From Prochlorococcus marinus str. NATL2A (lineage in GTDB: Bacteria; Cyanobacteriota; Cyanobacteriia; PCC-6307; Cyanobiaceae), in assembly GCF_000012465.1 (NCBI RefSeq), contig NC_007335.2:1320001-1352000 (forward strand): DNA of 32,000 nucleotides, read 5' to 3'. The translations under genes and the position numbers were made by a program. The notes under the pieces are model-generated. The model was given only the letters and a program-made list of their open reading frames with translations. It searched no databases and was not told where the DNA came from. Shown piece by piece: positions 1,606 to 14,240 of the stretch; the first letter of the stretch is position 1; each line of letters starts with the position of its first letter.

Positions 1606-1971
1606 CTAGATTTTTCTAACTCGATTGTTATACGAGGAATCAGCAGCTAATCCAGCCAGGGAAATTATTTGTTTCGAGCAGGCAGCAACACCACTGGATT
1701 GGTTATTGATAAGTCTAAGTCCTTTCTGCATCCCCTGTTCAAGATTTACGAGTAGTTTTGCAACCATTTGCGGCCGCTCAATATTGATCTCTTCAAAGTC
1801 TTGAACAATCAAGTCCATTGCCTTGGCTGTGATCCTTCGATCTTGCCCTCTGCTTAATTCGTACTCTTGGGTCACTCGGCTCGTTACGACAATGCAGCTG
1901 TAGCCTTGAGCAAGCAAGTCAGCAGGAAAACCTGCCCTTAATTCCATCTCTTGTTTATTAGCTTTTTTCAT
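1606..1971 (-). CDS. 121 aa small protein with a degenerate helix-turn-helix-like segment; intact copy (A) of a repeated island module
   Basis: ATG-initiated ORF, convergent with the methyltransferase. A decayed paralog at 12370-12719 reads GHS*TVTTTEIAEKYGLSRR*ARRVTAKAMDLI, a resolvase/transposase-style HTH pattern. The copy A equivalent is GYSCIVVTSRVTQEYELSRGQDRRITAKAMDLI. I recognise no named family. Confidence 0.6.
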   Translation of the reverse strand: MKKANKQEMELRAGFPADLLAQGYSCIVVTSRVTQEYELSRGQDRRITAKAMDLIVQDFEEINIERPQMVAKLLVNLEQGMQKGLRLINNQSSGVAACSKQIISLAGLAADSSYNNRVRKI

Positions 1972-2345
1972 ATTCCAGCTCGATGCAATGTAGATTCAAT
2001 TCCCTCTGGAGCATGTGAATACAAAGTGCCAACTCAGGAACCAAAGAAGGCATTAGATACCAAGATTGACTCTTTTCTATTATTGAGAAGGCGGAAGTCA
2101 TTGCGTATGCGACAGTTAAAAAATCAGAGTGAATGACTTTAGTCATTTGAGATTTTCTACGTTGCTATTTGGCGTGAGCTTATAAATTTGATCAATCATA
2201 TAAACAGTCAAAGTAATAATTAAAGTAGCTGAATAACCCAATAATTACAATTCAATTAGATTTCTTATCTGGTTTCAATTTGCGATATAGGCACTGCATT
2301 TGTGGCTCTTATTTATGTATAAACAAATAACAAATAAAACGCTAG
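1611..2345. repeat. Copy A of a ~0.73 kb dispersed direct repeat (partner at 12365-13085)
   Basis: The two stretches align by eye over the whole length, from ...ctcgattgttat... to ...ataaacaaataa.aaataaaa. A 70-nt core (1763-1832 vs 12511-12580) matches at 66 of 70 positions and contains GCGGCCGC. Confidence 0.9.
2132..2147. promoter_or_regulatory. Perfect palindrome AATGACT-TT-AGTCATT (candidate operator or RNA hairpin), conserved in both repeat copies
   Basis: The 7-bp arms are exact reverse complements. An identical copy sits at 12879-12894. It spans the ATGA stop/start overlap between the small TM ORF and the 62 aa ORF on the minus strand. Confidence 0.35.
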
Positions 2346-2471
2346 AATGAAGTCAAATAACGAATAGTCTTAATAAATATTGCTAGGGATATCCTGCGAA
2401 CTATCCTGAGAGTTGCTTTACAATACTTAGCTCTAAACCCAGTCATGCCAATGCTTTGCGAGAGAACATTA

Positions 2472-2518
2472 ACTGCCTTCTAAGCAGTGGGCCGCTGGTT
2501 CGAATCCAGCAGGGAGCG
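2472..2518 (+). pseudogene. Orphan 3-prime half of tRNA-Arg(UCU): anticodon arm to discriminator, no 5-prime half (att-like scar)
   Basis: Anticodon stem actgc/gcagt with loop cTTCTAa (anticodon TCT). Variable loop gggcc. T arm gctgg-ttcgaat-ccagc. Acceptor 3-prime strand agggagc plus g. The expected complementary 5-prime acceptor strand gctccct is absent upstream. Confidence 0.75.
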
Positions 2519-2755
2519 TTAAAATAATCCGAAGACACCAAGTTTTCTAAAGTTAAGAGTGATGATCGACGAAGTTCATTAAAGCGTAGAAGAGATAATT
2601 TACGGCCAAGAAAGTATATTTGCCCTCTAATCAAGCGCCATAACTAGTTAAAGTGACTGTTTTCTAAGCAAGTGTAGAAAAACTAATATTTTGAATTGGG
2701 GCTAATCAATTCAAGAAAATAGATCTATAGAAAAAGCTTAATAAGTTCAATCCAC

Positions 2756-4113: not shown

Positions 4114-4690
4114 TTAACTAGTAATACATTTAGATTTCAAAAACATGCTCACCTCTACAATTAAATCCCTTTCAAGTTTATTAATATGTCCTCCTAGTTG
4201 CCATGGAGTTTCCTCATAATTAATTTTGATTGATTTTTGCCTAATCAGATCTCCCATATCAACTTTTTCGGAGACATAGTGAACTGAGCATCCACCATAA
4301 ATTTCTTTAGCTGCCATAACAGCTTCTTGAACCTTTACTCCATACATTCCTATCCCCCCATAACGTGGCAATAAGGAAGGATGTGTATTTATAAGCTTAC
4401 CTTTCCATTTCGCACAAATTTTACTACTAATAATCGGCATATAACCTGCAAGTACAATCAGATTTGTATCTAAAGGCAATAACTTATCAAGTTGATCTGA
4501 CTTCACACTATTGGAGACCTCAGATTCAACATAACCTATAGGTATTTTATATTTTTTTTGCTTTATCTATTGCACCGCATTCTCTATCAACGACTAATTT
4601 AGTAACTTGATAGCCTTTATAATTCTGATTCTTGACAATAGATTCGAAGATTGCCCCATCTGAAGAAGAGCAGGCTACAACTTTATACAT
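4114..4690 (-). pseudogene. PurN-like formyltransferase interrupted by a frameshift in a T8/A8 homopolymer
   Basis: The ATG at 4690 gives MYKVVACSSSDGAIFESIVKNQNYKGYQVTKLVVDRECGAIDKAKKI, then a stop. Shifting one base inside the run at 4552-4559 continues as KYKIPIGYVESEVSNSVKSDQLDKLLPLDTNLIVLAGYM..., which is the listed 4114-4506 ORF. That ORF carries the formyltransferase motifs NTHPSLLP and SVHYVSEKVDMGD. Confidence 0.75.
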
Positions 4691-4745
4691 AAAGCATAGA
4701 AATACTCAAAAGAAATTATTTTTTACTAGTAGATATATACATTAT

Positions 4746-4780
4746 AGTAAATATAGATAAATATACTATCTATATTTACT
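4746..4780. repeat. Perfect 14-bp inverted repeat with a 7-nt loop (AGTAAATATAGATA-aatatac-TATCTATATTTACT)
   Basis: The arms 4746-4759 and 4767-4780 are exact reverse complements. It lies between tRNA-Ala and the formyltransferase start, directly after a 37-nt motif that recurs at 14021-14057. Confidence 0.7.
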
Positions 4781-4923
4781 ATTGGCTAGAAATCCATCAC
4801 TAATTGCTATCGCAAGTTTATATATCTAAATGCACTAACTTTTGCACTAAATTTACTTGAGACGGGCTTTAAGACCTTTGAGGATGAAGCTCTAATTCCT
4901 TTAATGTCAACACTTTTGAAGAA

Positions 4924-4996
4924 TGGAGCCAAGCGGACTCGAACCGCTGACCCCCTGCATGCCATGCAGGTGCTCTACCAGCTGAGCTATGGCCCC
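4924..4996 (-). tRNA. tRNA-Ala(GGC), intact, no encoded CCA
   Basis: The reverse complement folds as GGGGCCA-TA-GCTC-AGCTGGTA-GAGC-A-CCTGC-ATGGCAT-GCAGG-GGGTC-AGCGG-TTCGAGT-CCGCT-TGGCTCC-A. All four stems pair. The G3:U70 alanine identity pair is present. The anticodon is GGC. Confidence 0.95.
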
Positions 4997-5341
4997 ATGT
5001 GTGGTTTTTACTAGTTATACCAAGCAATTGGAGAGATTCTGGTAAATCGGTGATCTTGCTTGATACCGCTTGATATTGTGCATAATATAGCAAGATCCCG
5101 CCACTAATCCCGCCAAAGCGGCCTAGTAATGACAATGGCTTTACGGCAGAACTGAAGCAAATTGATGCGTCAGACCTACTTCTCGATAAAAAGTGTTATT
5201 GGTTCTCTGTTACTTTCTATCCAAAAAATAGTAGAAGCTCTTGTAAATGGATCTTTTAGGGGTTGCTCTTGCTAAAGCTTTGTTGTATTCCTCAGAATCA
5301 ATATATTTTGCATCTAGCGTGAATATTCCCACAGACAACCT

Positions 5342-7833: not shown

Positions 7834-8164
7834 TTTAGTGCGGCTTTAGTGTATTTCTATTTTACACATTACTCCTGATAAATATCACTTATTTTTTAAT
7901 ATTTATATAGCTTGCTTGGGTTTATTTTCGTCTAGTTTTTCTCTTGAGTGTTTATAGTATCTAGAGATTTTGCCATAGCATTAATCTTTATAATCAGCTC
8001 ACAATTCAAGGGCTGCTCGGAGGTCGTCAGAGCCAAAACCCACACGGAAACACATTCAGCCGCAAAGCAGTTTTCGCACCAAAATCACACCAAACAACGG
8101 AACACGCACTCTAAGTACTAAATCCAGATAGTCTAAAAACCAGGCTGTACAAGGGATCTCTAAA

Positions 8165-8184
8165 TGGAGCCAAGCGGATTCGAA
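8165..8184 (-). pseudogene. 3-prime terminal fragment of tRNA-Ala(GGC) (att-like direct repeat of 4924-4943)
   Basis: tggagccaagcggattcgaa vs tggagccaagcggactcgaa in the intact gene, 19 of 20 identical and in the same orientation. No remainder of the tRNA follows. Confidence 0.8.
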
Positions 8185-8304: not shown

Positions 8305-10524
8305 TTGACCGAAGAAAGAAAGAATCAAAAGCAAGAAGGCTCTAAAGTAAAAACATTCCCAGTCTCTTTTGCTTTAGGTGAAATTAAAGAAAACATCACT
8401 ATTACGACTAATAGCGCTTCTAATACTTCAAAGGAACAAAAAAGATTTGGAGACCAGAGTAAAACTATAAAGAAAAAAGATACCAATACAATTACTAAAC
8501 CTTCCAAAGATCAAATCATTAATCAAGCATTTAAATTTCATTCACAAGGCAATATAAAAGAAGCAGCAAAAAATTATCAATATTTCATTAATCAAGGTTT
8601 CTCTGACCACATGGTTTTTTCTAATTATGGAGCAATATTAAGAGATCTTGGTAATTTACAAGATGCAGAATTATATACTCGCAAAGCAATTAAAATTAAT
8701 CCTAATTACGCATTGGCTTACTCTAATCTGGGAAATGTATTAAAAGATCTTGGTAAGTCACAAGATGCAGAATTGTCATACCGCAAAGCAATTCAAATTA
8801 ATCCTAATTACGCAGATGCACATTACAATCTGGGAATAATATTGAAAGAACTTGGTAATTTACAAGACGCAGAATTGTCATATCGCAAAGCAATTCAAAT
8901 TAATCCTAATTACGCAGATGCATATTCCAATCTGGGAAATGTATTAAAAGATCTTGATAATTTACAAGACGCAGAATTGTCATACCGCAAAGCAATTCAA
9001 ATTAATCCTGATCATGCAGACGCATATTCAAATCTGGGAAATGTATTAAAAGATCTTGGTAATTTACAAGACGCAGAGTTGTCATACCGCAAAGCAATTC
9101 AAATTAATCCTGATCATGCAGAGGCGCATTTCAATCTAGGAAATCTATTAAAAGATCTTGGTAAATTACAAGAAGCAAAGAAAGTATTAAAAAAAAGTAT
9201 AGAGATTGAACCTAATAATCTAGACTATCTTTCAACATTCCTGTTTGTATTATTAATACTTTGTGACTGGGATGAGATAGAAAAATATTCAGCTGATTTA
9301 AATCTTATTGAAACAGATCTTAAAACTATTATTAACCCATTTCACTTAATGCACTTAGAGGATAATCCAGAAAATGAATTAAAGCTAGCGATTAAATATA
9401 GTCAGATAAATAAAAGTGACACATTGCCCAATCTAACTTCTTATAGTCATAGTAAAATAAATATAGGTTACTTTTCATCTGACTTTAGAAATCACGCAGT
9501 ATCATTTTTTTTAGCAAGGATATTTGAATTACATGATAGTTCTAGATTTAATATATATGCCTATAGTCTTAGAAAAGAAAGTGATGGTTATACAGAAAGA
9601 ATAAAGAATGCTGTTTTTTGTTTTCGAGAAGTAAGTGATCTAAATGATATTGAAATAGTTAATATAGCCCGAGATGATCAAATAGATATAGCTATAGATT
9701 TAAATGGTATTACAAAGTCACGTAGAAAGTATATTTTCGAATATCGTGTCGCTCCAATACAAATAAATTATTTTGGCTACCCAGGAACAATGGGGTCAGA
9801 ATCATATGATTTTAGAATTACTAAAAAAATAATAGTTCCTGAAGAAGATAAGAAATTTTATACTGAAAAGATCTTATATCTACCGGATAATATAATTCCT
9901 ATTGATGATACTCAACACATATCAACTGAAAAATTTAGCAGAGAAGAGCTAGGACTTCCCTTAGATAGTTTTGTCTTTACTTGTTTTAATAGAACTGAAA
10001 AGATTACTAGAAAAGAATTTGATATTTGGATGCGTTTATTAAAGAAAATTGATAACAGTGTTTTATGGTTAATAAAACCACATAAAGCCGCAATAGAGAA
10101 TTTATATTCAGAATTAAATAAACAATCTATGAACAAAGAAAGAATAGTATTTGCAGAATTTATGAATTTGAATGATCATTTATCCAGGCATGAATATGGT
10201 GATTTATTTCTAGACACTTTTAATTACAATGCTGGCACTACTGGTGCTCTCTCTTTATGGGCAGGATTACCCATTATAACTCTAGCTGGGAAAACAAATT
10301 CTTCCAGAGCATCAGCTGGTTTTCTAAATGCGTTGGATCTAAATGGTTTAATCACATATAATGAATACGATTATGAATCATTAGCATATGAACTTGCAAC
10401 AAACAAAAAAAAGCTAGAGCACATACGCAATAAATTAAAAAACAAACAATCTTCCTGTTTTGATCCCTATAAATATACTATCGAATTGGAAAAACTTTAT
10501 ACTGATATTAATTCAAAACTATAA
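8305..10524 (+). CDS. TPR-repeat protein fused to a GT41-type (SPINDLY/O-GlcNAc-transferase-like) glycosyltransferase domain
   Basis: 739 aa. It has six or more 34-aa TPR units (AELSYRKAIQINPNYADAYSNLGNVLKDLGNLQD). The C-terminal half has the GT41-like pattern IGYFSSDFRNHAV...QINYFGYPGTMG...DLFLDTFNYNAGTTGALSLWAGLPIITLAG. TTG start, so the exact start is uncertain. Confidence 0.85.
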   Translation: MTEERKNQKQEGSKVKTFPVSFALGEIKENITITTNSASNTSKEQKRFGDQSKTIKKKDTNTITKPSKDQIINQAFKFHSQGNIKEAAKNYQYFINQGFSDHMVFSNYGAILRDLGNLQDAELYTRKAIKINPNYALAYSNLGNVLKDLGKSQDAELSYRKAIQINPNYADAHYNLGIILKELGNLQDAELSYRKAIQINPNYADAYSNLGNVLKDLDNLQDAELSYRKAIQINPDHADAYSNLGNVLKDLGNLQDAELSYRKAIQINPDHAEAHFNLGNLLKDLGKLQEAKKVLKKSIEIEPNNLDYLSTFLFVLLILCDWDEIEKYSADLNLIETDLKTIINPFHLMHLEDNPENELKLAIKYSQINKSDTLPNLTSYSHSKINIGYFSSDFRNHAVSFFLARIFELHDSSRFNIYAYSLRKESDGYTERIKNAVFCFREVSDLNDIEIVNIARDDQIDIAIDLNGITKSRRKYIFEYRVAPIQINYFGYPGTMGSESYDFRITKKIIVPEEDKKFYTEKILYLPDNIIPIDDTQHISTEKFSREELGLPLDSFVFTCFNRTEKITRKEFDIWMRLLKKIDNSVLWLIKPHKAAIENLYSELNKQSMNKERIVFAEFMNLNDHLSRHEYGDLFLDTFNYNAGTTGALSLWAGLPIITLAGKTNSSRASAGFLNALDLNGLITYNEYDYESLAYELATNKKKLEHIRNKLKNKQSSCFDPYKYTIELEKLYTDINSKL
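8650..9159 (+). repeat. Five tandem 102-bp units (one TPR each) with high nucleotide identity, plus a diverged sixth unit from 9160
   Basis: Unit starts are at 8650, 8752, 8854, 8956, 9058 and 9160, exactly 102 bp apart (ggtaatttacaaga.gcaga.ttgtcata.cgcaaagcaattcaaattaatcct...). Confidence 0.9.
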
Positions 10525-12229: not shown

Positions 12230-12364
12230 TAATTTAGATTCGATAAAATTTTAGTTTTTGCTTTGTCATCTAAATTTCTTCTGATCAGTTAATAATAAAA
12301 GAACAACGCCTTATTTTTACCATCTTATATTAAAACAATTTTTATAACCAATATTCATTACCAG

Positions 12365-13085
12365 ACTTTTCTTCCTCGATTGTTATGCAAATACTTATCA
12401 GCCAATCCAGCCAGTGAAATTATTTGCTTTGCACAGGCAGCAACGCCACTTGATTGGTTATTGAATAATCCTTTTGCATACCTTGTTCGACATTTACAAG
12501 TATTTTTTCCACCATTTGCGGCCGCTCAATATTGATTTCTTCAAAGTCTTGAACAATCAAATCCATTGCCTTCGCAGTGACTCGCCTCGCTTACCGTCTA
12601 CTTAAGCCGTATTTCTCGGCTATTTCGGTAGTTGTAACGGTTCAACTATGACCTTTAGCAAGCATCGAAGCAGCTTCACCCGTCCTTAATTCCATCATTT
12701 GTTTATTAGCTTTTTTAATATTCCAGCTCTATGCAATATAGATTGAATTCTATCTGGAGCATTTACAAACACAGTGCCAACTTAGGCACCAAAGAAGGCA
12801 TTAGATACCAAGATTGATTCTTTTCTATTTTTGAAAAGGCGGAAGTCATTTTTTCTGCGACAGTAAAAAATTAGAGTGAATGACTTTAGTCATTTGAGAT
12901 TTTCCAGGCGTTTCTATTTTGCGTGAGCTTATAAATCTGACTAACTATATAAGCGACTAAAGTAATAACAAAAGTAGCTAAAAGCATTATAATATCAAAT
13001 AAACTAGACTTATACCTGGTTTAGATTTTACGATATGGGCTGCCTTTGGCGGCTCATTTTCATATAAACAAATAAGAAATAAAAG
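12365..13085. repeat. Copy B of the ~0.73 kb dispersed direct repeat (partner at 1611-2345), decayed
   Basis: Collinear with copy A, including the palindrome at 12879-12894 and the 66/70 core at 12511-12580. Confidence 0.9.
12370..12719 (-). pseudogene. Decayed paralog of the 121 aa HTH-like gene
   Basis: The start codon is changed (ATG to ATT at 12717-12719). There are two in-frame stops (GHS*TVTT, SRR*ARR) and a frame change near the 3-prime end. The translation otherwise parallels copy A (VTAKAMDLIVQDFEEINIERPQMV is identical). Confidence 0.8.
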
Positions 13086-13200
13086 GGCTATTAATTCAGT
13101 TATATTAATCGAAGACATTAAAAAAGCGGGTTTATCAAAATCCCGCCACGGCTCCCGCCATTAACATTCTGTTGAGCGTTTATATCTCAGTGACTTCAGT

Positions 13201-13263
13201 GCTTCCCAAGGATTCGAAGTGCTTCATGCCATGCATTTGATCTACCAGCTGAGCTATGGCCCC
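13201..13263 (-). pseudogene. Decayed copy of tRNA-Ala(GGC)
   Basis: The 5-prime 23 nt (13241-13263) are identical to 4974-4996 of the intact gene, and the anticodon-loop core catgccatgca is retained. The anticodon stem, T arm and acceptor 3-prime strand are mutated or deleted, so it cannot fold. Confidence 0.8.
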
Positions 13264-14240
13264 AAATACTTGATATGAAATTGATTGCAGTCAATTTCAA
13301 GCAACACAGCCATTATATTTCACCATTCAAGTATACCCAATTTACGTCAGACTCTACTGAATTACGCTCTATCAATTTTCTATGGAGGGGTATTTATTAT
13401 CTATTTCATCACAAAAACTAGCCAAAGCAGCTTGTGAAAAAATTTCGCGAATCTTCCAATTAATTTCAAAGGATCGTTTTGTTTTTCTTGTTTTCAAGGG
13501 CTTCGTCATTAACTGAGAAAAAATGGCAATTAGATAAAGAATTTAATGGCTTTTTATAGGCTTGTGTACAAAAAATTATTCATAACAAAAATTAAACAAG
13601 AAAAACATCGCCATACGTTAATAAAAAAGTAAAAATCAATCGATTTCTAACGTAAAAAGTCCTCTTTCGAGAGATAGTTGTACACTATGATACTTTTCCA
13701 CATTTTCTCTTTTCCTCATATTACAAAAAGTTTTGTCCGAGAATTTTGACAAGAACTTTTCAATGTATCAAGAGATACAAATCCCTTGAGAACTACTGCA
13801 GCATCTGTGATTGAGGTGGTTGATTGTTTTTTGTAATTTATCCACTTATTCAATTGACATGACCCCCCATTGAATTTTTTTTATTTTGTGTGTTTTGTGG
13901 AAAAGTGGAAAACCCGCATTAAATGCCTCCAGATTTCAATTTTTTCTAATTGACCATCAAAAATGATTTTTATTCTAGATATAGTTTTTTTTAAGGCCAA
14001 AAGATAAACAATTCGGCCCAAGAAAGTACTTTTTACTAGAAGATATATACATTATAGGCAAAAAAAATTGCCTTCTTCTATGTCTTTAGTTGACAATTCT
14101 ACTGCCTTTCAAGATTATCTCTAATTTAAAAATGAACAATTTCAATAGTTCAATTACCTAGAGAATTTCAAAAAAAATTAGGACCTGATTTCAATTGTTT
14201 ATGTTGAAAGATTGGAATAAGCCCCCCCTTAATTAATAAA

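Follow-up and report, generated by a model that had tools for sequence, protein, structure and literature searches.

A probable tycheposon-type end-cassette carrying two uncharacterised protein families in Prochlorococcus marinus NATL2A

Background

Tycheposons are a described class of integrative elements in the genomic islands of Prochlorococcus (Hackl et al., bioRxiv 10.1101/2020.12.28.424599). Seven transfer RNA (tRNA) genes are their targets, Pro-TGG, Ala-GGC, Thr-GGT and Arg-TCT among them, and their hallmark profiles comprise DUF3854/AAA_25, D5 and Prim-Pol domains as well as the small-gene profiles rep_IRVE-1 to 10, reg_IRVE and unk_IRVE-1 (Supplementary Table 4 of the same paper); in the published model degenerate elements and cargo accumulate in islands, and tandem elements are separated by partial tRNAs (bioRxiv 10.1101/2020.12.28.424599). 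These elements are believed to assemble the genomic islands behind niche adaptation of the ocean's most abundant phototroph. In MIT0604 their genes are induced by mitomycin C. Here we analyse 32,000 nucleotides (nt) of Prochlorococcus marinus str. NATL2A (contig NC_007335.2, positions 1,320,001 to 1,352,000, forward strand; hereafter the window), in which an initial annotation had pointed to three overlapping minus-strand open reading frames (ORFs) beside tRNA fragments, read as a mobile-element module and possibly a toxin/regulator pair.

We report that two of these ORFs, encoding proteins of 62 and 121 amino acids (aa), form with their leader a conserved unit that is very likely the end-cassette of a tycheposon-type element, present in NATL2A as remnants. 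The host genus and the genomic-island location are those of tycheposons; full or partial island tRNAs (Arg-TCT, Ala-GGC, Thr-GGT, Pro-TGG) flank the cassette, lineage-specific tyrosine integrases and DUF3854, D5, DnaB-like or Prim-Pol genes adjoin related loci, and there are many degenerate remnants, with tandem elements split by partial tRNAs. The copies in the window differ in having neither an integrase (usually a tyrosine recombinase, facing inwards at one end) nor replication genes, and are therefore remnants and not elements. Moreover, one neighbouring tRNA, tRNA-Gly(GCC), is outside the seven published targets, and the 62-aa/121-aa pair is unnamed in the text of that paper. To call the locus the best candidate in the window for an undescribed system was thus an overstatement: the element class is known and the cassette is an ordinary outcome of tycheposon integration and decay, and it is only the two protein families that are uncharacterised. 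Most small genes of the tycheposon backbone have no assigned function, and two "hypothetical" NATL2A genes are now placed in it.

Two other kinds of system bear a likeness to the locus. Staphylococcus aureus pathogenicity islands and related phage-inducible chromosomal islands (SaPI/PICI) are small integrative elements that carry a terminal integrase and a primase-helicase replication module, while small DNA-binding proteins of regulator or small-terminase type are encoded elsewhere in them. In toxin-first type II toxin-antitoxin systems such as HigBA and MqsRA a small first gene overlaps a second gene encoding a helix-turn-helix (HTH)-like protein, and these systems are also found on mobile DNA.

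Structure and conservation of the cassette

The cassette (copy A) and the scar next to it consist of the following features.

1606-1971, minus strand: 121-aa gene (ORF listing, homologues and purifying selection)
1958-2146, minus strand: 62-aa gene, overlapping the 121-aa gene by 14 nt (ORF listing, homologues and selection)
2132-2147, no strand assigned: perfect 7-2-7 palindrome AATGACTTTAGTCATT (AATGACT-TT-AGTCATT) over the 62-aa start codon (sequence)
2147-2276, minus strand: leader 5' of the 62-aa gene, moderately conserved as DNA, holding a 32-aa ORF (2143-2241, TTG start) (diversity profile)
2390-2408, minus strand: direct repeats CAGGATA x2 (2408-2402 and 2396-2390), 12 nt apart, between scar and leader
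2472-2519, plus strand: 3' part of tRNA-Arg(TCT) (positions 27-74, 48 nt), attachment-site scar, 325 nt upstream of the 62-aa start

The coordinates of the three ORFs, the ATGA overlap between the 32-aa and 62-aa ORFs and the 14-nt overlap between the 62-aa and 121-aa ORFs are as first annotated. For comparison we used about 70 copies of the cassette, i.e., 28 genome loci, 32 metagenome loci and several copies from an exact-protein look-up, in loci of 6-10 kb (referred to by L numbers). Nucleotide diversity is 0.07-0.2 over both genes, 0.28-0.43 in the 100 nt upstream, and about 0.6, i.e., the random level, beyond the leader and directly after the 121-aa stop codon. Conservation begins approximately 100 nt 5' of the 62-aa gene and ends exactly at the 121-aa stop codon, so that leader and both genes together make up the conserved unit.

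The 121-aa ORF is a gene under purifying selection and belongs to a picocyanobacterial family. Its dN/dS (ratio of nonsynonymous to synonymous divergence) among intact copies is 0.12, and nucleotide diversity at the three codon positions is 0.116, 0.070 and 0.291, third positions varying most. An identical NATL2A protein (100%) is annotated as "conserved hypothetical protein". We found 316 homologues, all from Prochlorococcus or marine metagenomes, and the family profile retrieved 226 clusters from 1.8 billion representatives; relatives of about 110-125 aa are present in P. marinus SS120 and Synechococcus lacustris, and all are annotated as hypothetical.

The 62-aa ORF is likewise a gene under purifying selection. 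Its first methionine is invariant in 175 homologues, and compared with the divergent L027 copy (53% identical) the proportions of nonsynonymous and synonymous differences (pN and pS) are 0.286 and 0.935 in frame, the ratio exceeding 1 in the other frames. Within the close lineage dN/dS is only 0.51 because dS is very low, 0.14 in eight intact copies vs 0.65 in the adjacent 121-aa gene (seven copies, largely the same set).

The third ORF, initially described as a transmembrane peptide, behaves differently from the other two, and the three-ORF unit is reduced to two genes. In the 32-aa frame dN/dS is 1.30. A 1-nt deletion fuses this frame to the 62-aa ORF in L001, L008, L020, L028, L029 and L034, copies that are otherwise intact, and the products of 76-89 aa predicted by gene callers arise because the deletion joins the two frames. 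Stop codons in other copies truncate the frame and remove the hydrophobic N-terminus, while the ATGA stop/start overlap arises from a 2-nt deletion seen in the window copy only. At the same position the tRNA-Thr lineage has an unrelated hydrophilic ORF and the divergent lineage a 117-aa gene. The hydrophobic stretch is short, with a best 19-residue Kyte-Doolittle mean of 1.18, below the usual cut-off of 1.6 (19 residues) for a membrane helix. Across genomes and metagenomes the 62-aa/121-aa pair recurs while the peptide is interrupted or replaced, and the 32-aa ORF has arisen in the leader by chance and is no conserved gene.

A scan for consensus promoters and terminators gave none on the minus strand for the 62-aa/121-aa operon. 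RNAalifold predicted for 19 leaders a weak structure (-7 kcal/mol) with zero compensatory pairs, and the idea of a riboswitch or other leader RNA was abandoned given the weak structure and the lack of covariation. Descent of the leader in NATL2A from a decayed 117-aa gene, as present in the divergent lineage, is likewise unsupported, since tblastn gave no match.

The palindrome at the start of the 62-aa gene is present as first annotated and is no commoner than chance gives in the AT-rich DNA of the window: in the window as a whole we counted 27 perfect palindromes with arms of 7 nt or more and spacers of up to 4 nt, vs 20 +/- 6 in first-order Markov simulations. It forms part of coding sequence (codons MTKVI), and 18 of the 32 copies compared have it in perfect form; six further copies carry one mismatch each, at third or neighbouring positions and uncompensated, and in the five copies of the divergent lineage three to four of the seven positions are mismatched with the ORF open, being full-length in L027 and L053 and reaching the contig end in the other three. 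We found no evidence of selection for the palindrome as such in the 32 copies, the simulations or the RNAalifold analysis of the leaders. No other part of the cassette is as conserved as the palindrome with its surrounding 30 nt (nucleotide diversity 0.068).

A weaker outer inverted repeat, GAAAATC...GATTTTT, encloses the palindrome at approximately 2118-2156 (minus strand), and as RNA the palindrome and outer stems would bury the 62-aa start codon. Covariation of these nested stems is not assessable because every position is invariant in the close lineage. A search with the motif TRACTNNAGTYA returned the homologous sites, one site in the circular relative L067 (see below) and two stray sites; a shared operator motif was rejected, these few sites being too thin a basis.

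Predicted proteins

Searches of Pfam, NCBIfam, PHROGs and PADLOC with all three ORFs gave nothing usable, in line with the initial annotation, which could name no family. For the two proteins PADLOC, Pfam and NCBIfam give no family at E <= 1 (E, expectation value), the 121-aa protein having no match in Pfam or NCBIfam and the 62-aa protein none in Pfam, PHROG or PADLOC. The sole family-level match is to phrog_34910 (function unknown), by 14 of 27 scanned members of the 121-aa family (best E 1.2e-10).

The AlphaFold2 model of the 121-aa protein has a predicted local distance difference test score (pLDDT) of 76, with helices at residues 6-11, 14-21 and 26-37 followed by a long helix (41-109) and a basic tail; the predicted HTH-like domain takes in the three short helices and the beginning of the long one. 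The motif LSRRQARRI, conserved in the family, is located at the expected start of a recognition helix, and the long helix probably drives oligomerisation. The model agrees with the protein having been called HTH-like, whereas the HTH profile matches are all sub-threshold: HTH_23 in 5 and HTH_28 in 4 of the 27 members (best E 0.012), HTH_11 in 4 (best E 0.02) and, in a test for excisionases, a weak HTH_17 match in 2 (best E 0.11). With the family profile the best match among PDB sequences is a weak one to a TetR HTH (E 0.27). Foldseek gave nothing significant (best E 0.37 in PDB and 0.04 in BFVD), the weak matches being to homeodomain and Mu I-beta folds (E >= 0.75) and to small-terminase folds; profile and structure searches thus revealed no clear homology of the 121-aa protein to any well-characterised family. 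For the 62-aa protein the model (pLDDT 80) is a two-helix hairpin (helices 2-26 and 29-61), i.e., a predicted soluble helical hairpin, and Foldseek against PDB returned no match.

Attachment scars and arm repeats

A second copy of the cassette (copy B) is present in the window, flanked by remains of another tRNA.

12363-13085, minus strand: second, pseudogenised copy B of leader, 62-aa and 121-aa genes (77-82% identity, ORFs all fragmented)
13141-13160, minus strand: direct repeats TGGCGGGA x2 with 12-nt period in copy B; same repeat in L002 and L028
13222-13264, minus strand: 5' half (43 nt) of tRNA-Ala(GGC), attachment-site scar, 331 nt upstream of the copy B 62-aa start
4923-4997, minus strand: full tRNA-Ala(GGC) gene (tRNA detection)
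8164-8184, minus strand: 21-nt scrap of a tRNA-Ala 3' end, further integration scar (sequence match)

The whole unit had been described as duplicated at 12365-13085. A second copy is indeed present, and it is a pseudogene and no intact unit: the 121-aa ATG is now ATT, in-frame stops have accumulated and the 62-aa ORF is frameshifted, although 41 nt around the palindrome are 98% identical to copy A. The tRNA scars reported beside the ORFs flank both copies. The scar next to copy A matches full-length tRNA-Arg(TCT) genes from other genomes at 100% identity, scores 27 bits with the Rfam tRNA model, which is below the threshold, and is not called as a gene by ARAGORN. Copy B lies between a full tRNA-Ala gene and a 43-nt partial one, as in tycheposons, where the partial tRNA measures about 40 nt, while copy A has a partial tRNA-Arg, the full gene being outside the window. 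The scrap at 8164-8184 implies that the 8-kb segment comprises at least two insertions.

Of 23 copies, 19 have paired direct repeats of 6-9 nt between scar and cassette, with a period of exactly 12 nt and at a distance of 57-86 nt from the scar. The repeat sequence is lineage-specific (CAGGATA, TGGCGGGA, TGGCGCA, TTACCGCA, TGCGCA, AGGGCAT or TAGAGC). These repeats are probable arm-type recombinase sites whose specificity would co-evolve with the integrases; sites for an integrase are likelier than sites for the 121-aa protein because the recognition-helix motif of the latter is near-invariant among the copies while the repeats vary.

In copy B the second TGGCGGGA repeat continues into a GC stem and T-run (GCGGGA...CCCGCTTTTTT). 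GC-rich stems with T-runs (e.g. GCGGGATTTTGATAAACCCGCTTTTTT) between tRNA or scar and cassette were observed in the window (13120-13146, minus strand) and in L002 and L028, and the same pattern follows tRNA-Thr (L004, L031) and tRNA-Gly (L012, L043); they look like terminators stopping read-through into the element.

Copies in other genomes and metagenomes

A full or partial tRNA is located 321-387 nt upstream of the 62-aa start codon in 25 copies: the 5' half of tRNA-Ala in 12 (in one a shorter internal piece), the 3' part of tRNA-Arg in seven, a full tRNA-Gly in three, a full tRNA-Thr in two and the 3' part of tRNA-Ala in one. In L014 a homologue lacking the 62-aa gene is found 137 nt from a full tRNA-Pro. 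With respect to tRNA-Gly(GCC), the cassettes of L012, L043 and L044 lie 354-355 nt downstream of the full gene.

Both genes are intact in approximately 15 of the 70 or so copies. An intact 62-aa gene is paired with a broken 121-aa gene in about eight and the reverse is seen in about five, while about four have an intact 121-aa homologue and no 62-aa gene (family members of this kind occur in L014, L033 and L006). The remaining 26 or so assessable copies are broken, and contig ends truncate a dozen more. Pseudogenes make up about half of the total, in keeping with degenerate element remnants.

Element genes adjoin several related loci. In L003 and L008 an integrase gene is located across a partial tRNA from the cassette, the arrangement expected of tandem elements separated by a partial tRNA, and integrases are also present at L032 and L033 (phrog_1 match, E 9.5e-13). 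Replication genes with the DUF3854/AAA_25, D5 (D5_N) and Prim-Pol domains known as tycheposon hallmarks (bioRxiv 10.1101/2020.12.28.424599) are found in L004, L014 and L033. The order in L004 is tRNA-Thr, cassette, cargo, DUF3854/D5 primase-helicase and a small excisionase-like gene, and in L014 tRNA-Pro, a 123-aa homologue, AAA_25 helicase, Prim-Pol and a small excisionase-like gene. These small genes, beside a primase or integrase in L004, L014 and L033, match one another and have no Pfam or PHROG match. In L033 a 112-aa paralogue lies directly downstream of the primase-helicase (hhalign probability 98%). A 140-aa homologue at the left of L033 was considered as the far element end and not used, as its N-terminus is replaced and no attachment repeat or partial tRNA adjoins it; it may belong to an older insertion.

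In NATL2A and other LLI strains the cassette neighbours are cell-surface glycosylation genes and no integrase or replication genes are nearby, which fits the published model of degenerate elements accumulating in islands. Neighbouring genes in the window carry Pfam domains such as methyltransferase, DUF2214 and DegT.

A circular relative

With a freshwater relative as search seed we reached L067, a 7,743-nt contig from freshwater-type metagenome runs with a 30-nt terminal overlap, i.e., a 7,713-bp circle, whose junction is crossed without mismatch by an independent contig from a different sample (L068 and L069 being grouped with L067). It encodes ParA, three small ORFs, a divergent tyrosine integrase, an XRE-type HTH protein and a 999-aa DUF3854 primase-helicase, which is followed by ORFs of 63, 134, 117, 54 and 125 aa and then parA; the last two ORFs (54 and 125 aa) overlap. 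The 125-aa protein is a member of the 121-aa family, and the 54-aa protein, in the same position as the 62-aa protein, is homologous to it (31% identity, E 2e-5). For the 117- and 134-aa proteins, homologues are encoded by the genes that come before the pair in the marine lineage described as divergent above (E 3e-15 and 1e-22, respectively).

In that lineage (L053, L056, L062, L046, L030 and L005) a 134-aa and a 117-aa gene precede the pair. The end of the 117-aa gene is separated by 2 nt from the 63-aa start codon, and Pfam and PHROGs gave no match for either gene.

L067 and the divergent lineage share the gene order 134, 117 and pair, and the pair thus forms the conserved tail of a four-gene block in the replication/maintenance backbone of small integrative elements. 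The L067 pair thus resembles that of NATL2A in order and in its start/stop overlap, and it shares the two preceding genes with the divergent lineage. It differs in that it ends an operon behind a primase-helicase and precedes parA, whereas the NATL2A pair stands alone by an attachment site, and the proteins are only about 25-30% identical to those of the NATL2A lineage, which retains only the last two genes of the block.

Interpretation and alternatives

Taken together, we consider it likely that the locus is the end-cassette of a tycheposon-type element with a DNA-binding accessory pair for replication, maintenance or regulation, and not a toxin system. Region 1606-2519 would be the surviving end of an element that entered at tRNA-Arg(TCT), and 12363-13264 the same end-piece of another element, which entered at tRNA-Ala(GGC) and has since decayed. 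From the scar inward the predicted layout is a half tRNA, an arm of about 200 nt with the two direct repeats 12 nt apart, a leader of about 100-130 nt and the operon, in which the helical hairpin gene comes first and would be translationally coupled to the 121-aa gene. The 121-aa protein may bind DNA through its N-terminal helices and oligomerise through the long helix, with the hairpin as its putative partner, and the pair could serve replication, maintenance or regulation of the element, e.g. recognition of the origin or element end or control of element genes; in NATL2A it would have no cellular role beyond being a remnant. The mobile-element reading of the initial annotation, and its pointer to tycheposons, are supported by the scars, by the fixed distance of the cassette from the attachment scars of several different tRNAs, and by relatives in islands that also hold integrases and primase-helicases.

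The pair is conserved as a pair over large evolutionary distances and in one lineage marks the integrase-distal element end at a fixed distance from the attachment scar, and the cassette could therefore be a simple marker delimiting old island integrations. Its wider impact is modest unless the pair controls element replication or immunity.

Several observations weigh against this interpretation. A replication or maintenance role in particular is a tentative proposal, and a somewhat doubtful one, as function is read from gene neighbourhood only. The N-terminal HTH-like domain of the 121-aa protein is weakly supported, all profile matches being below threshold. In the window, tblastn with the L033 integrase and other element proteins gave no match and no integrase, primase or helicase lies beside either copy; none of the 6-10 kb loci contains a complete element running from a NATL2A-type cassette to an integrase at its opposite end; and no relative was found in IMG/VR, nor in GenBank phages by tblastn with the window protein and a distant relative. 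The 4-5 times lower synonymous divergence of the 62-aa gene relative to the 121-aa gene in the close lineage could be due to recent sequence homogenisation at the element end or to a cis-acting constraint on DNA or RNA that overlaps the gene. Finally, the two families may already be among the context-defined profiles rep_IRVE-1 to 10, reg_IRVE and unk_IRVE-1. A broader proposal, improbable in our view, would take in the low 62-aa dS and the start palindrome as marks of an overlapping cis-acting site: the pair would be a portable, ancient two-protein cassette, distributed from freshwater picocyanobacterial mini-plasmids to marine tycheposons with at least five tRNA targets, that recognises a specific DNA site at the element end or origin and controls replication, excision, transfer or immunity against related incoming elements.

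The same palindrome is central to the possibility that the pair is a repressor or immunity module, in which the 121-aa HTH protein would dimerise via its long helix, bind the palindrome over its own operon start, and autoregulate or silence element genes or incoming related elements, orphan copies being kept for immunity. The HTH-like head and long helix of the model suit such a role, as do the high conservation of the palindrome region, extending to decayed copy B, the common occurrence of intact orphan copies and, in L067, a comparable 7-2-7 palindrome (CGTAACT-AG-AGTTACG) shortly behind the 125-aa gene. The latter is a single case that may be due to chance, however, some 2-4 sites fitting the degenerate pattern being expected in 497 kb of searched sequence, and the NATL2A palindrome lies in coding sequence at chance frequency, has uncompensated single mismatches in six copies and is absent from the divergent lineage even though L053 has both genes intact. 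Given that about half of the copies have decayed there is also no strong retention, and we regard a repressor as unlikely. Less likely still is a small-terminase-like packaging protein, whose HTH and helical oligomerisation core would recognise the DNA of the element and redirect phage capsids, helped by the 62-aa protein. The size and architecture of the 121-aa protein are compatible with this, there are weak Foldseek matches (4xvn, E 2; Caudovirales TerS, E 0.34), and PICI-like tycheposons with terS are known, one regulator profile having first been labelled 'terS-1-pro' (bioRxiv 10.1101/2020.12.28.424599). These fold matches are far from significant, though, and neither Pfam nor PHROGs gives a terminase family; the cassette proteins resemble Stl, Str, Rpr and TerS of SaPI/PICI neither in sequence nor, to any significant degree, in fold, none of the cassette loci examined has capsid or packaging genes or a visible helper-phage link, relatives are absent from viral contigs, and in L067 and L033 the gene sits in a replication operon.

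The small, tightly overlapping genes, the HTH-like product of the second one and their location on mobile DNA had suggested a toxin-antitoxin or addiction module, with the membrane peptide or the 62-aa protein as toxin and the HTH protein as antitoxin and regulator. The first of these would-be toxins lacks the conserved transmembrane helix of type I-like toxins, being a non-conserved and only marginally hydrophobic ORF, and the second is a predicted soluble hairpin. Pfam, NCBIfam and PADLOC gave no toxin, antitoxin or defence family for either protein; moreover, in contrast to HigBA and MqsRA, the partners decay independently (about eight vs about five copies, though other copies in some genomes could act in trans) and the second gene also occurs alone. 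A toxin-antitoxin system is therefore highly improbable, and a membrane-peptide toxin system is not present here, which removes a false lead.

Other features of the window

The tRNA-Ala scrap at 8164-8184 is located between a pyruvyl-transferase gene and a TPR/GT41 gene. A direct repeat of 49 nt (84% identical) is present at 4710-4758, near the 3' side of the full tRNA-Ala gene, and at 14020-14068, between the tRNA-Ala scar and lexA; it could be due to chance or be part of another old junction. Adjoining tRNA-Ala, a 130-aa ORF (4114-4506, minus strand) matches positions 69-180 only of the formyl-transferase N-terminal domain and looks like a truncated gene. Six tandem 102-nt repeats at 8517-9279 (plus strand) lie within the 739-aa TPR/GT41 glycosyltransferase gene and represent the TPR units of the enzyme, given as three 34-residue repeats per 102 nt.

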